A stretch of 64,000 nucleotides of DNA from an uncultured Candidatus Saccharibacteria bacterium (lineage in GTDB: Bacteria; Patescibacteriota; Minisyncoccia; Phycocordibacterales; UBA918): the NCBI GenBank assembly GCA_964552045.1, contig CAZKFF010000002.1:3855-67854 (forward strand), given 5' to 3'. Made by a program: the position numbers and the translations under genes. Positions 4,727-62,967 of the stretch are shown piece by piece. The number at the start of each line of letters is the position of its first letter. Position 1 is the stretch's first letter. The notes under the pieces were generated by a model. The model was not told the origin of the DNA. It searched no databases and worked only from the letters and a program-made list of their open reading frames with translations.

Positions 4727-5728
4727 ATGGAAAAGAAAGGAATCATCAACAACTCATCAACGGACCCCAACAAGATCCTTCCGATGAAATATAAATGGGC
4801 GCGCGAGCACTACAAGGCCGGAGTCGCAAACAACTGGACGCCGGAGGAGATCTCCATGCAGCTCGACATTGAGCTCTGGAAGAAAGAAGGCGGCCTCACC
4901 GAAGATGAGCGACGCATGATCTTGTGGAACCTCGGTTTCTTTTCGACCGCTGAGTCACTGACCGCCAACAACCTCGTGCTTGCGGTATACAACCATGTGA
5001 CCAACCCTGAGTCGCGCCAGTATCTTCTGCGCCAGGCGTACGAGGAAGCAGTCCATACCGACACGTTCATCTACTGCTGCGATTCTTTGGGTCTCGATCC
5101 CGATGAGATCTACAACATGTACGAGACCATTCCGTCGATCAAAGCGAAGGATGAGTTCGTGGTCAACTTCACCAAGTCGGTGTTTGATCCGAATTTCAAG
5201 ACCGACAGTCTTGAGAACATCCAGCGGTTCGTTCACGACCTCATCGGTTTCTACGTCATCATGGAAGGCATTTTCTTTTATGCAGGATTCGCAATGATGC
5301 TCTCACTCAAGCGCCAGAACAAGATGCCGGGGACTTCGGACCAGTTCCAGTACATTCTCCGCGACGAGTCCATTCACCTCGCATTCGGTATCGACCTCAT
5401 CAACACCATCAAGGCTGAGAATCCGGAGGTCTGGACCGAGCCGTTCATTGCTGATATCACTGCGAAGATCAAGCAGGCGGTTGAGCTTGAAAAAGGGTAT
5501 GTTGATGACGCGATGCCGAAAGGCATCCTGGGTCTCAATCCGACAAGCGTGAAAGAGTATGTAGAGTATATTGCGGACCGCCGCTTCGAACGTCTGGGAC
5601 TGCCGGTGCAGTACAACACGCAGACGCCGTTCCCGTGGATGAGCGAAGTGATCGACATGCCGAAGGAGAAGAACTTCTTCGAGACGAAAGTGACCGAATA
5701 CAAAACCGGCGGAAGCCTGGAGTGGTAA
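4727..5728 (+). CDS. nrdB: Ribonucleoside-diphosphate reductase beta subunit
   Basis: 333 aa; ferritin-like di-iron and tyrosyl-radical family features, immediately downstream of nrdA. Confidence 0.95.
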   Translation: MEKKGIINNSSTDPNKILPMKYKWAREHYKAGVANNWTPEEISMQLDIELWKKEGGLTEDERRMILWNLGFFSTAESLTANNLVLAVYNHVTNPESRQYLLRQAYEEAVHTDTFIYCCDSLGLDPDEIYNMYETIPSIKAKDEFVVNFTKSVFDPNFKTDSLENIQRFVHDLIGFYVIMEGIFFYAGFAMMLSLKRQNKMPGTSDQFQYILRDESIHLAFGIDLINTIKAENPEVWTEPFIADITAKIKQAVELEKGYVDDAMPKGILGLNPTSVKEYVEYIADRRFERLGLPVQYNTQTPFPWMSEVIDMPKEKNFFETKVTEYKTGGSLEW

Positions 5729-52683: not shown

Positions 52684-52717
52684 AAAAGCTCAGTGCAAGG
52701 CTGAGCTTTTGTGTTTT
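52684..52717. terminator. Bidirectional terminator hairpin
   Basis: aaaagctcag tgcaagg ctgagctttt with T/A runs on both sides. Confidence 0.65.
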
Positions 52718-52738
52718 GTCGGGATGCCGGGAATCGAA
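52718..52738 (-). repeat. tRNA 3'-end-like repeat, copy 2
   Basis: gtcgggatgCcgggaatcgaa, 20/21 identical to copy 1; no complementary 5' acceptor strand within 90 nt. Confidence 0.5.
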
Positions 52739-52796
52739 CCTGGGCCACACGTCCTCTGGGCGCAGATGCCCACCGGACATCTGGTGAAAAACTGAG

Positions 52797-52867
52797 TCGG
52801 GGTAACCGGAATCGAACCGATGTCTTACCCACCCCATGGGTATATACTGCCCCTATACTATACCCCG
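52797..52867 (-). tRNA. tRNA-Pro (anticodon GGG)
   Basis: Manual fold: acceptor CGGGGTA/TACCCCG, anticodon stem TACCC/GGGTA with loop AUGGGGU, T-arm ATCGG-TTCGATT-CCGGT; D-stem needs G-U pairs. Confidence 0.7.
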
Positions 52868-57083: not shown

Positions 57084-57136
57084 CTTGATAAGTATCAAGA
57101 GAAAAGGCTTGACTTTGTTTTCGATTCATATAGAAT
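57084..57136 (+). promoter_or_regulatory. rRNA promoter: TTGACT-16-TAGAAT with upstream perfect palindrome CTTGATAAGTATCAAG
   Basis: Near-consensus sigma-70 -35/-10 elements ~740 nt upstream of 23S; palindrome at 57084-57099. Confidence 0.55.
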
Positions 57137-57142
57137 AGCGAG

Positions 57143-57875
57143 CACATTGTTATGAAATTTGAGTTAAGAAAACTGTAGCGGGACACGAGTTCTTAAAGGA
57201 TTCTTGTGCCGCGAAAAGCGGTTTTTTTAAAAACAAAGTTCAAGGTACGATGCGATTTTTGAAAATTGCATATTCTACTCGGATCGGGTGTAGGATACCC
57301 GGTCCGGTATAAGTCCTGTGTGCTCGACACACACAGGCATGTTCGCGTTCTCGTCGTTACTACGTCACAGCGAGGACAAGAGCAAGCTTGCTTGTTTTTA
57401 GTCCGAGCGAAGACGAAGTAAACACCGCAAGGTGTTTGCTGTTTCGAGAACGCGAACAAAGGTAGTGCGCAGAGTTAAGATTATGTACAAACGGTACAGG
57501 GTCTTTTCGTCCTCTGCGCACATCAAAACACATCGAGTCTTCAAGAGTCGTATTTTCTCTTGAAGACACAACACACTCAAAAAAATTGTACAGCGGTGTG
57601 AGAAAGTCCGGTGGACTTTCGCAAGAGGTTGCCTGTCTGCTGTCACAGCAGCGACAACCTGAACAGCTCCTGTAAGGAGCAGCATTCCTTGCGAATTTCT
57701 CAGAGTCGACTTTCTTAATATCGTTGTGCATGAAAAATTGTACAGCGGTGTACAGCATTCCTTACTGCGGAGTGAGCGAGTGTCGCGCAAAAGTTTACTT
57801 TTGCATGACCGAGCGAACGAACGCAGAAAGGTAACGAGTACGAAATATCGCAATGCGATGTCCAGTATTCCTTAC
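57143..57875 (+). other. Long structured 23S rRNA leader with internal ~150-bp imperfect tandem duplication and 5' arm of the processing stem
   Basis: Nested long-range helices (gttcgcgttctcg/cgagaacgcgaac; 11-bp gtcttcaagag hairpin); direct repeat aaaaattgtacagcggtgt at 57581 and 57733; agtattccttacagg pairs with cctgtaaggaatact at 60865-60879. Confidence 0.5.
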
Positions 57876-60885
<3,010 letters not shown>

Positions 60886-60986
60886 TCGATACAATTTTTC
60901 TTTGCAGTGTGGTGTAGCGATGTGTTTTGATCAAAAGTAGAATATGCACGTTTGGATATTTTGAAGTGGTAGAAGTATTACTTCGT

Positions 60987-61181
60987 CGGAGTATAGCGCA
61001 GCCTGGTAGCGCATCTGTTATGAGTGAAGTCCTCGTTACTCGTCGCCTTCTCCTCTCCGGAGGAAGGAACGAAAATCGAACTCTGATTCGCAGCGATGCC
61101 GCAGGGAGTCTGCACAACAGCTCCTAGGCTTCGGACTTCTGGAGCAGGGGGTCGAAGGTTCAAATCCTTCTACTCCGACCA
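60987..61181 (+). tRNA. tRNA-like gene with encoded CCA interrupted by a ~118-nt intervening sequence (tentatively tRNA-Gln CUG)
   Basis: Perfect 7-bp acceptor CGGAGTA/TACTCCG, canonical D-arm GCGC-AGCCTGGTA-GCGC, T-arm GAAGG-TTCAAAT-CCTTC, CCA; anticodon stem TCTGT(61014-18)/GCAGG(61144-48) forms only if 61019/20-61136/37 is removed, leaving loop UUCUGGA. Confidence 0.45.
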
Positions 61182-61310
61182 CTTCAATAGCTCGTCGTCT
61201 GAGAGAATGCGACGGGCTCGGCATCCCTCTTTTGAACCGCATTGAGAGAGGGATGCCACTACTTCAGAATATCCAAACACGTCGCACACGCATGCGTATT
61301 GAAGGTTTAA

Positions 61311-61420
61311 AGTTGGTGCTTTGGCCAAGAGGGTACACCTGTTCTCATTCCGAACACAGAAGTTAAGCTCTTCCGCACCGATGGTACTCCGCAAGGGGGA
61401 GAGTAGGTTGGCGCCAACTT
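61311..61420 (+). rRNA. rrf: 5S ribosomal RNA
   Basis: CCGAACACAGAAGTTAAGC and GGTACTCCGCAAGGGGGAGAGTAGG conserved blocks; terminal helix gttggtgc/gcgccaac. Confidence 0.85.
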
Positions 61421-61432
61421 TAAGCTTTCAAA

Positions 61433-61463
61433 AGAAAAAGACCGAGGTTAACCTCGGTCTTTT
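61433..61463 (+). terminator. Intrinsic terminator of the rRNA transcription unit
   Basis: aaaaagaccgagg ttaa cctcggtctttttc. Confidence 0.85.
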
Positions 61464-61511
61464 TCTTTTGATGCCAACGAAATTTGCAGCTTAAAGGTGG
61501 CGCCCGTCCAG

Positions 61512-61653: not shown

Positions 61654-62967
61654 ATGAGAAATACCATTACCCATCCAGGCGCATCCAGCCTGGTCTATGA
61701 AATACGCGAGATCGTCGAGGTAGCAAAGAAGCTCGAGGCGCTTGGGCTTCCCATCATTTGGGAGAACATCGGCGACCCTGTAGCCAAAGGCGAGGGTGTT
61801 GCGCCGTGGATAAAGGAATACGCTTCACAGGCACTCCTTTTGGATATGACCTATGCGTATTCACCGACAAAAGGATTGCTGCAGACACGTGAGTACATTG
61901 CCACGGAACGCAACCTTGAGGGGGGGATACAGATCACCGCCGATGACATTCTCTTCTTCAATGGCCTCGGAGACGCAATATCGAAACTGTACAAATGTCT
62001 GCACCCGAATGTCCGCGTGATCGGTCCAAACCCTGCCTACCCGACGCATTCCTCTGCCGAGGCCGCTCATGCCGACCGACCACATATCACGTACTCGCTT
62101 GATCCGCACAACGGATGGGCGCCTGATCTCGAAGAAATGGAGCGGAAGATCCACGACCATCCAGAGATCGGCGGCATTCTTATCGTCAATCCGGACAATC
62201 CAACGGGGTATGTGTATCAGGAAGGGACATTGCGGAAGATTGTCGATATCGCCCGGAGGCATGATCTGTTCATCATTACCGACGAGATATATTCAAACCT
62301 TTCCTACGGCGTGCCGTACAAGAAGCTCGCTGCGGTCATCGGCGACGTCCCTGCGATCGCCATGCGGGGCATTTCCAAGGAGTTCCCCTGGCCGGGCGGG
62401 CGCTGCGGATGGATAGAGTTCTACAACCGCGACAAGGATGAGGATTTCAATATCTATGCAAAATCGCTTATCGATATGAAGATGCTTGAAGTCTGCTCGA
62501 CGACGCTGCCGCAGCTTGTGCTGCCGCAGGTAATGAGCGATGAGCGGTACTATCCGATGCTTCAGAAGCGGAGCGAGACCTATCAGGCCCGCGCGCAGCA
62601 TGCATATGATGAGCTCTCAGCCATACCGGGAGTGATCCTCCATAAGCCCAATGGCGCGTTCTACATGACACTCGTCTTCGAGGAGGGCGTGCTCACTGTG
62701 ACACAGTCGCTTCCGTTTGCCAGCACCGCGGTCGGGGAGGTTATGACTCCGCTCATTACCGATGACACCACGCTTGATAAACGGTTCGTGTATTATCTCC
62801 TCGCGGCAAAGGGCGTGTGCGTGGTGCCGCTTACCTCCGGTTTCAATTCAACGTATAACGGGTTCCGTTTCACCGTTCTCGAAGAGGATGAGAATGTATT
62901 CAAACAGACGATTGCGACGATCAAAGAAGCGATCACTGCATATACTGCCTCAGGGTCAAAGACCTGA
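61654..62967 (+). CDS. PLP-dependent aminotransferase, class I/II (aspartate/alanine aminotransferase-like)
   Basis: 437 aa; fold-type I aminotransferase pattern (IVNPDNPTG; SKEF PLP-lysine region). Confidence 0.85.
   Translation: MRNTITHPGASSLVYEIREIVEVAKKLEALGLPIIWENIGDPVAKGEGVAPWIKEYASQALLLDMTYAYSPTKGLLQTREYIATERNLEGGIQITADDILFFNGLGDAISKLYKCLHPNVRVIGPNPAYPTHSSAEAAHADRPHITYSLDPHNGWAPDLEEMERKIHDHPEIGGILIVNPDNPTGYVYQEGTLRKIVDIARRHDLFIITDEIYSNLSYGVPYKKLAAVIGDVPAIAMRGISKEFPWPGGRCGWIEFYNRDKDEDFNIYAKSLIDMKMLEVCSTTLPQLVLPQVMSDERYYPMLQKRSETYQARAQHAYDELSAIPGVILHKPNGAFYMTLVFEEGVLTVTQSLPFASTAVGEVMTPLITDDTTLDKRFVYYLLAAKGVCVVPLTSGFNSTYNGFRFTVLEEDENVFKQTIATIKEAITAYTASGSKT

Follow-up and report, generated by a model that had tools for sequence, protein, structure and literature searches.

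Bacteria of the Candidate Phyla Radiation (CPR) have small ribosomes, unlinked ribosomal RNA (rRNA) genes, many rRNA insertions and few ribosome-biogenesis factors, and to our knowledge the content of their rRNA spacers has hardly been looked at. Circularised CPR genomes have been noted to carry transfer RNA (tRNA) genes and homing-endonuclease genes between 23S and 5S, and to have group I introns in tRNAs (Lui et al. 2021, PMC8172020). CPR bacteria's rRNA genes commonly hold short, uncharacterised insertions of <200 bp at stem apices, for which an origin as intervening sequences (IVSs) cut by RNase III has been suggested (PMC11270868). An archaeal precedent comes from Haloferax volcanii, in which, as PMC3296008 states with reference to Hoelzle et al. 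2008, tRNase Z cuts a tRNA-like structure that lies upstream of the 5S rRNA. The locus described here belongs to a 64,000-nucleotide (nt) stretch of DNA from an uncultured Candidatus Saccharibacteria bacterium (contig CAZKFF010000002.1), called the window below. Its 23S-5S spacer contains, at 60987 to 61181, an element that looks like a tRNA gene interrupted in the anticodon arm by about 118 nt.

On the evidence of sequence, this element is a real, conserved and unannotated structured RNA in a poorly known lineage, and it is most likely that a non-decoding, tRNA-like RNA describes it better than a tRNA gene with an intron. The fuller reading that we prefer, and to which we would give about an even chance, is that it is a tRNA-Pro-derived, non-decoding, tRNA-scaffolded structured RNA carried in the 23S-5S unit. 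The parts of the tRNA-like body are as follows.

60987 to 61181, + strand: the whole tRNA-like element, 195 nt (ARAGORN in intron mode; covariance model R1)
60987 to 60993, + strand: acceptor stem, 5' strand CGGAGTA, 7/7 pairs with 61171 to 61177
60996 to 61012, + strand: D arm GCGC-AGCCTGGTA-GCGC with G18 and G19 kept, one loop position varying among four sequences and the rest invariant
61014 to 61019, + strand: anticodon stem, 5' strand TCTGT(T) (TCTGT at 61014 to 61018), pairing with 61143 to 61148
61019 to 61136, + strand: the 118-nt intervening sequence, or insert, as delimited by ARAGORN and by the earlier note
61143 to 61148, + strand: anticodon stem, 3' strand (A)GCAGG (GCAGG at 61144 to 61148), from the consensus structure
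61149 to 61153, + strand: variable loop GGGTC, from the consensus structure
61154 to 61170, + strand: T arm GAAGG-TTCAAAT-CCTTC, 3/5 stem pairs compensatory and the loop invariant
61171 to 61181, + strand: acceptor stem, 3' strand TACTCCG (61171 to 61177), A73 (61178) and CCA (61179 to 61181), from the sequence

An earlier note, made from the sequence of the window alone, had reported an acceptor stem of 7 perfect base pairs, D and T arms of canonical form, discriminator and CCA, with the anticodon stem TCTGT/GCAGG interrupted by about 118 nt; the sequence reads as it claimed, and ARAGORN in intron mode gives exactly the same coordinates. With the setting -ps95 that program called a tRNA-Gln(ctg) with a 118-nt intron at position 33, exactly at 60987-61181, and with another setting a tRNA-Arg(tct), in a shifted register at the same coordinates. 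The element is called only when introns are allowed: default ARAGORN made no call at 60987-61181, the sole tRNA that it listed in the window being one tRNA-Pro, and the Rfam tRNA model RF00005 found the T arm alone, at 14.5 bits where the gathering score is 29. R1, a covariance model made from four homologs, gave the window copy 211 bits over model positions 1-193.

Those homologs came from orthologous loci, which were fetched via homologues of the downstream aminotransferase gene (61654-62967). These homologues are many, and the few with source names were labelled Candidatus Paceibacterota (a synonym of the phylum Minisyncoccota), Nomurabacteria or Pacebacteria; from these protein labels the organism is treated here as of the CPR/Patescibacteria type. 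The gene order of 23S, 5S, aminotransferase, VWA gene and FtsW gene was largely kept among the loci, some of which have extra genes between 5S and the aminotransferase. Besides the window, three related metagenomic contigs carry the element, in each case in the 23S-5S spacer.

L058, 4862-5052: element homolog, aminotransferase 82% identical to that of the window
L066, 6671-6857: element homolog, aminotransferase 81% identical
L067, 2287-2481: element homolog, aminotransferase 79% identical

The four copies scored 205-215 bits with R1, and nothing comparable was found in the other 14 sources searched. Over the four loci the mean identity of the element was 82% (tRNA part 87%, insert 78%), compared with 85% for 5S rRNA, 92% for the last 200 nt of 23S and 48% for the spacer that flanks the element. 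The D loop, T loop, discriminator and CCA are invariant in all four copies apart from the one D-loop position, and CCGACCA is invariant in the four and also in a variant module of another relative, L056. Changes in the acceptor stem are limited to one compensatory pair and one G-U change. In the anticodon stem four pairs are invariant, and 31-39 and 32-38 vary with compensation.

The structure that was scored consisted of the canonical cloverleaf plus seven helices in the insert, a total of 62 pairs in four sequences, and 96.7% of its pair cells were standard pairs. Thirteen of the 62 pairs were compensatory, in contrast to 0-3 in controls in which the 3' partners were slid by 1-3 columns, and none of 500 shuffles reached the observed number of paired cells, of compensatory pairs or the covariation score. 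By helix, the compensatory pairs were found in the T stem (3/5), anticodon stem (2/6) and acceptor stem (1/7), and in the insert helices P-a (3/7), P-b (2/7) and P-d (2/8). Figures of this kind from four sequences speak of consistency and are not a formal significance test, although the contrast with the flanking spacer is still large. They indicate that the cloverleaf and the insert are both under selection.

The same figures bear on whether the element is a neutral, decaying tRNA pseudogene, a functionless remnant in a spacer. The anticodon has mutated differently in each lineage, and truly degenerate tRNA remnants do occur in the spacers of relatives (a T-arm relic in L052 and a module in L048), as would be expected of decay. 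However, because body and insert are conserved about as well as 5S rRNA, the element is not a neutral remnant: it stands at 82% beside flanks at 48%, pairs as well as described above with its 13 compensatory pairs, and keeps its CCA, D loop and T loop, so that we regard decay of the whole as very improbable indeed. The earlier suggestion of a decayed tRNA therefore holds for the anticodon, which is one G35U change away from the UUCGGGA of tRNA-Pro, and fails for the body and insert.

The insert lies between anticodon-stem position 31 and loop position 32, is present as a single copy in the 64-kb window by BLAST, and folds as follows.

61026 to 61032, + strand: helix P-a, 5' strand GAAGTCC, pairing with 61133-61139 (GGACTTC); seven pairs, 100% paired, three compensatory
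61033 to 61096, + strand: branch 1, closed by helix P-b (61033-61039 with 61090-96), two of seven pairs compensatory
61040 to 61072, + strand: branch 1, hairpin P-c/P-d with an invariant apical UCCUCUCCGGA; two of the eight P-d pairs compensatory
61078 to 61089, + strand: branch 1, hairpin P-e, enclosed by P-b, from the consensus structure
61098 to 61129, + strand: branch 2, P-f (GCC/GGC) and the P-g hairpin (GGGAGTCTG / CAGCTCCT), with one-sided changes only and weaker support

In every copy the anticodon stem leads through a small, variable internal loop to P-a and then to a three-way junction with two branches. The 3' strand of P-a, GGACTTC, includes the first three bases of the would-be anticodon loop, and in L066 the helix is AAAGCTT/GAGCTTT. 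Half of the unpaired positions of the insert are invariant across the four copies, including long loop and junction sequences (UCCUCUCCGGA, GAACGAAA.UCGAAC and UGAUUCGCA), and the fold belongs to the + strand, as several of its pairs are G-U. A coding role for the insert is ruled out because indels of 1, 2 and 5 nt separate the homologs. As to the hairpins that the earlier note had drawn in the insert, CCTTC.../GGAGGAAGG is P-d and shows covariation, and GAGTG/TACTC falls outside the consensus fold. Some other features of the insert were considered and dropped: a pairing of the 5' strand of the anticodon stem with an internal ACAG (CTGTT/AACAG in the window, CTGTAGC/GCTACAG in L058) is absent in L067, a hammerhead-like CUGAUGA occurs in L066 alone and is unconserved, and a complementarity between the invariant loop CUCUCC and GGAGAG of 5S is, at 6 nt, too short to count.

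The origin of the body is apparent once the insert is taken out in silico. What is left, 77 nt, shares 82-87% identity with bona fide tRNA-Pro(CGG/UGG) genes that belong to unrelated bacteria in other phyla, the comparison genes being those among the sequences fetched in the analysis; its loop TTCTGGA differs from the TTCGGGA of tRNA-Pro by the single substitution G35U, and BLAST matches to tRNA-Pro(CGG) genes extend from the anticodon loop to the CCA. On these three grounds the body is that of a tRNA-Pro(CGG)-type gene. It carries C1-G72, A73 and G37, which we take to be features of tRNA-Pro and not of tRNA-Gln or tRNA-Arg. By comparison, its identity to the window's own tRNA-Pro(GGG) (52796-52867), which has no encoded CCA, is 55%.

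Directly downstream of that tRNA-Pro(GGG) there is a tRNA-like fragment at 52716-52775 on the - strand, with a T arm (GGTTCGATTCC) and a ...CCCGA end. It has no full cloverleaf, is followed by a terminator hairpin and has an equivalent in L054 at 479-536; both places gave weak matches to R1.

If the element were a functional, decoding tRNA, a tRNA-Gln(CUG) in the window, with a new kind of short, spliced intron, several of its properties would fit. Intron mode yields a 77-nt cloverleaf with the 7-nt loop UUCUGGA, the anticodon stem is kept in all four copies, and acceptor, D and T arms, elbow nucleotides, discriminator and CCA end are all those of a decoding tRNA. Pairing between insert and loop is likewise a trait of the introns of pre-tRNAs in eukaryotes and archaea. 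The homologs, however, do not agree on an anticodon: the same excision gives CUG in the window and UCG, UUG and UCG in the orthologs according to ARAGORN, that is, Gln followed by Arg, Gln and Arg, on a body with the features of tRNA-Pro. In three of the four copies only six bases are left between P-a and the 3' strand of the stem, a seventh having to be taken from the insert. The NGG anticodon of a functional tRNA-Pro (G35, G36) is absent, the window having U35 and the other copies deletions or substitutions, and no 7-nt loop with U33 and an anticodon conserved among the orthologs was found, the loop bases (ACTTC) being part of the 3' strand of P-a. A register shifted by +1 gives Pro anticodons in three of the four copies; it was rejected as a mature structure, since it has a 4-bp stem, lacks position 26 and fails in L066, but the anticodons it yields may be kept as evidence of Pro ancestry.

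Nor did the insert resemble an intron. The smallest known group I introns have about 200 nt, so that 118 nt is about half of that and far below it. Against the Rfam intron and ribozyme families (group I, group II, hammerhead, twister and others) there was no match to the insert at E<=10 in three copies (window, L066, L067), consistent with the earlier statement that it is too short for a typical group I intron, and E-value mode in the same copies gave no signal recognition particle, 5S or transfer-messenger RNA (tmRNA) match inside the insert. No bulge-helix-bulge was found at the junctions: the internal loop between anticodon stem and P-a has 1-8 nt on its 5' side and 2-4 nt on its 3' side, and these sides face each other without 3-nt bulges spaced by 4 bp. 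A group I intron in a tRNA was accordingly rejected, as excision restores no canonical tRNA of consistent identity and Intron_gpI is not matched, although CPR tRNAs with group I introns are mentioned in the literature (PMC8172020). The proposal in the earlier note of a tRNA-Gln(CUG) gene with a spliced intron is thus supported neither by the homologs nor by the pairing of the loop bases, and a decoding role is very improbable; for a permuted or split tRNA, which it had also raised, there was no evidence. An anticodon that decays differently in each lineage while the rest is kept is what would be expected if decoding had been lost and the shape and the insert remained in use.

Two known families were also tried and set aside. 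For tmRNA, ARAGORN, whose search includes tmRNA genes, reported nothing in the window but one tRNA-Pro, the four copies have G-C and not G-U at pair 3-70, and a tag reading frame is excluded by the indels among the homologs. YrlA (RF02553) was matched at 14.6, 16.2 and 27.9 bits against a gathering score of 69, and because these matches run from the T arm of a module into the D arm of the one that follows, they amount to generic likeness to tRNA.

The surroundings of the element suggest how it might be made. The 23S-5S spacer has 437 nt, and the element inside it is co-oriented with both rRNA genes; Rfam found no 16S in the 64-kb window.

57872 to 60874, + strand: 23S rRNA (Rfam LSU_rRNA_bacteria, 2470 bits, full length)
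60951 to 60969, + strand: long spacer stem, 5' arm (GTTTGGATATTTTGAAGTGG), pairing with 61261-61280 (by eye and RNAfold)
60972 to 60984, + strand: hairpin GAAGT-ATT-ACTTC, directly 5' of the element (by eye and RNAfold)
61190 to 61257, + strand: two hairpins in the stem apex, 3' of the element (about 61190-61219 and about 61220-61257; RNAfold)
61261 to 61280, + strand: long spacer stem, 3' arm (CTACTTCAGAATATCCAAAC) (by eye and RNAfold)
61312 to 61419, + strand: 5S rRNA (Rfam 5S, 74.8 bits)
61440 to 61469, + strand: terminator, hairpin and T-run after 5S (by eye; a consensus scan did not list it)

RNAfold of 60940-61290 predicted the closing spacer stem, with z = -8.1, and the stem was found, with compensatory differences, in every relative examined (among them L048, L052, L056, L058, L063 and L064). 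The hairpin at 60972-60984 occupies the same place as a second, tRNA-Asn-like module in L058, L066 and L067, and the second of the 3' hairpins is also found in L048. The best promoter-like site of the region is 57109-57136, upstream of 23S; as a whole, the region has as many promoter-like sites as would be expected by chance. Because the element has the same orientation as the rRNA genes, with that site upstream of 23S and the terminator after 5S, it is natural to suppose that it is co-transcribed with 23S and 5S.

Three further observations concern the 23S gene. Counted from the promoter-like site at 57109, its leader is about 750 nt long; a direct repeat, AAAAATTGTACAGCGGTGT, stands in this leader at 57582-57600 and 57735-57753; and motifs that contain TGTACA recur beside the 23S processing stem (57866-57880 / 60862-60890) and in the spacers of relatives.

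From these pieces the course of events we envisage is that the ~118-nt sequence inside a gene of the tRNA-Pro(CGG) type turned into a conserved, branched domain, giving a molecule with acceptor stem, D/T elbow and CCA end and with the anticodon loop gone. It would be transcribed within the 23S-5S precursor, at the apex of the long conserved spacer stem, where its tRNA-like top half would be recognised by tRNA-processing enzymes: RNase P would cut at 60986/60987 and the 3' side would be trimmed back to the encoded CCA. These cuts would part 23S from 5S in the precursor and free an RNA of about 195 nt, in which the tRNA body might serve as a scaffold for processing and stability and the conserved, branched domain would be the part with a sequence-specific partner. 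Several points weigh against this proposal. RNase P cleavage, release and stability are all steps that we infer from the DNA itself, and no partner of the branched domain was found. Since it ends about 130 nt before 5S, the element cannot itself make the mature 5' end of 5S. There are only four homologs, all in one narrow clade, and the covariation rests on few independent events. Finally, the element is absent from close relatives (L048/L049 have a different insert of about 95 nt and L063 a 16-nt loop), and because it is thus dispensable at the locus, an essential role in rRNA processing is argued against.

The relatives show that the apex of the spacer stem is a hot spot, whose content changes from one relative to the next.

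L063: a bare 16-nt loop at the apex
L064: an unrelated 115-nt insert at the apex
L048/L049 (86% relatives): a degenerate module of about 95 nt in which an Asn-like anticodon arm, CGG-CAGTTTA-CCG, is kept
L052: a T-arm relic at the apex
L056: a different Pro-like module with a D-loop insert of about 45 nt (Rfam tRNA 31 bits)
L058, L066, L067: a tRNA-Asn(GUU)-like module (degenerate in L066), then the element
L053/L054, 7222-7662: a LAGLIDADG_1 homing-endonuclease open reading frame (ORF) in a 1.26-kb 23S-5S spacer

The placement between 23S and 5S, which had been called unusual, is therefore one that recurs in the lineage, and tRNAs between 23S and 5S are known from CPR genomes (PMC8172020). 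The LAGLIDADG_1 ORF lies past the 3' end of 23S as called by Rfam and not within 23S. The tRNA-Asn(GUU)-like modules, at 4772-4847 in L058, 2197-2273 in L067, about 6551-6655 in L066 and about 395-470 in L048, have A33 (L058, L067) and a pyrimidine at position 37; the D loop lacks GG in L058 and has an insert of about 30 nt in L066, and in L048 the anticodon arm CAGTTTA alone is left. These modules may also be tRNA-like and non-decoding. Two other relatives have rearranged rRNA sequences: in L052 an insertion of about 300 nt without an ORF (about 590-890) sits in the 23S gene, between ...GGGTTTAGACCGT and GCGTGAGACAGGTTGG in the domain V region, and looks like one of the CPR rRNA insertion sequences, and in L056 (about 750-795 as against 935-1050) a second copy of the first ~35 nt of 5S (TTAAAGTTGGTGCTTTGACCAAGAGGGT) stands about 190 nt upstream of the real gene and runs into unrelated sequence, a truncated pseudo-5S inside the spacer.

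This turnover raises the alternative of pure processing punctuation, in which only the acceptor/T-arm top half would matter, as a signal for RNase P and tRNA 3' processing, and the insert would be a functionless, IVS-like expansion of the apex, possibly excised by RNase III without religation. The modules of the relatives, which keep acceptor stem, T arm and CCA and differ elsewhere (L056; the Asn-like modules with A33 and a pyrimidine at 37), are what it would lead one to expect, and it can point to the frequent stem-apex insertions in CPR rRNA genes, with their suggested RNase III IVS origin (PMC11270868), and to the tRNA-like processing structure of Haloferax, as far as PMC3296008 recounts it. 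What it accounts for poorly is the insert, which at 78% is far closer to the tRNA part (87%) than to the spacer (48%) and has half of its unpaired positions invariant, something needless for a mere expansion; and the bare stem of L063 indicates that processing can proceed without any module. We consider punctuation possible, though on the unlikely side.

The patchy presence and absence among close relatives at one hot spot could also betray a mobile or horizontally spreading element, be it the whole unit or the insert, whose similarity would then reflect recent transfer and not function. A homing-endonuclease ORF in the same spacer of L053/L054 and the closer identity of the body to typical bacterial tRNA-Pro (87%) than to the tRNA-Pro(GGG) of its own genome (55%) would agree with this. 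Yet the copies have diverged (82%) to much the same degree as the adjacent 5S (85%), which fits vertical descent, and compensatory changes, a mark of selection on structure, are numerous among them. Terminal repeats and target duplications are absent, the insert is a single copy in the 64 kb and gave no match in blastn searches of phage and plasmid collections, and a scan of viral contigs with a pattern that fits all four homologs had 0 matches. Mobility as the explanation of the similarity is distinctly improbable.

Wider searches yielded no further copy of the element. A GTDB scan for a D arm, a 101-161-nt gap and a T arm, a narrow pattern that fails to match L058, L066 and L067, returned 45 loci, all of them tandem tRNA-Pro genes, tRNA-Pro plus another tRNA, or partial duplications, and so bears on hardly more than the absence of the window's genome from the GTDB species representatives. 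A metagenome scan with the insert pattern gave no match, and one with a 5S-leader pattern gave five loci, none with the element, two of which were informative as empty or alternative sites. Exact-protein look-ups for the neighbouring gene of the window led only to contigs that end directly after 5S, and two further look-ups to contigs without the spacer. An exact pattern for the element, as an alternative to R1, is TCCTCTCCGGAN{2,8}GAACGAAAWTCGAAC.

These scans also brought side observations. In a Thermodesulfovibrionales metagenome-assembled genome (MAG; L031, JASEEX010000014.1), 4925-5113 on the + strand is an outer gene that resembles tRNA-Pro (acceptor stem and D arm, then TTCGG ..., T arm and the acceptor stem again; the outer anticodon stem unpaired) with an insert of about 112 nt, which consists of a complete tRNA-Pro(CGG) between a perfect 13-bp inverted repeat, CCCCGCACCAAAC/GTTTGGTGCGGGG, i.e., a tRNA nested in a tRNA-like gene; the locus scored 58.7 bits with R1. 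Five Desulfobacterales-type MAGs (L006, L013, L018, L019, L041) have, some 100 nt upstream of their tRNA-Pro(UGG), a partial copy of its 5' part that is conserved among them and comprises the 5' strand of the acceptor stem, the D arm and a hairpin rich in GC (TCCCGC...GCGGGA). In three other loci (L004, L010, L036) a complete tRNA-Pro is followed, 60-90 nt on, by a duplicated T arm, acceptor 3' strand and CCA, and such a duplicated 3' part is what the integration of an element into a tRNA gene usually leaves behind.

Returning to the tRNA-scaffolded RNA that we prefer, neither its placement nor the notion of a processing signal shaped like a tRNA is new, given the CPR spacer tRNAs (PMC8172020) and the Haloferax structure as recounted in PMC3296008. 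For a tRNA body in which a conserved three-way-junction domain of ~118 nt replaces the anticodon loop, we found no description in searches of Rfam 15 and of full-text literature. A bolder version, which we put forward tentatively and think rather unlikely, would make the element a member of an undescribed, CPR-type family of natural tRNA-scaffolded non-coding RNAs, in which a tRNA-Pro body has given up decoding and the three-way-junction domain, once freed from the pre-rRNA, acts in trans, for instance in making ribosomes or controlling their quality where biogenesis factors are few; the same low estimate covers, as its rarer alternative, a new class of bacterial tRNA intervening sequence, not of group I, that is removed in some other way. 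A varying series of tRNA-derived modules occupies this one position of the spacer, and if the element is only a processing signal, spacer tRNAs will have been recycled into punctuation marks. There is also a practical side, as intron-tolerant tRNA finders will mis-annotate such elements as intron-containing tRNA-Gln or tRNA-Arg and so distort CPR tRNA inventories.

Among known systems, the spacer tRNAs of CPR genomes (PMC8172020) are likewise co-oriented, inside the rRNA transcription unit, built of cloverleaf arms and presumably freed by tRNA-processing enzymes, whereas the element has no anticodon loop or conserved anticodon, carries a 118-nt domain and is missed by default tRNA finders. The Haloferax structure, as far as PMC3296008 describes it, is also tRNA-shaped, non-decoding and placed in the 23S-5S interval, and recruits a tRNA-processing enzyme, as the element may do by analogy; it is archaeal and abuts the 5' end of 5S, whereas the element ends about 130 nt before 5S, and it is the element that has the large, conserved extra domain and the encoded CCA, which is an anti-determinant for RNase Z. 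In the case of Williams 2020 (bioRxiv 10.1101/2020.01.27.920355), too, an intervening sequence interrupts the anticodon arm of a bacterial gene of tRNA type, which default finders miss, but the insert of the element has no group I match, is about half the minimal size, stands before loop position 32, and on excision restores no consistent tRNA. With 23S IVSs and CPR rRNA insertions (PMC11270868) the insert shares a size of about 100-200 nt, membership of neither group I nor group II, a position at the apex of a stem in a stable RNA and, for the CPR insertions, the same kind of organism; the host of an IVS is rRNA and the IVS a simple, extended hairpin, while the host here is a tRNA-like RNA and the insert is conserved and branched.

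YrlA and the bacterial Y RNA-like family (RF02553), a non-coding RNA with a tRNA mimic to which Rfam gives weak, recurrent matches, has the reverse topology, as the element ends at its acceptor stem and YrlA at its Ro-binding stem. In tmRNA, too, a large structured domain stands where a tRNA has its anticodon arm, next to acceptor stem, T arm and CCA; that RNA has G3-U70, a tag reading frame, a pseudoknot series and about 360 nt, and the element a fully canonical D arm, G-C at 3-70, no reading frame or pseudoknot series, and 195 nt. A structured RNA of about 100 nt in the anticodon arm of a tRNA body is also found in the archaeal tRNA-Trp intron, which encodes a box C/D RNA, and in engineered tRNA scaffolds, which carry cargo RNA in that arm. 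The element is bacterial and has neither C/D boxes nor a bulge-helix-bulge, so that the likeness is one of architecture only. Should the RNA prove stable, the engineered tRNA scaffold would have a counterpart in nature, and the element would represent a new family of tRNA mimics.

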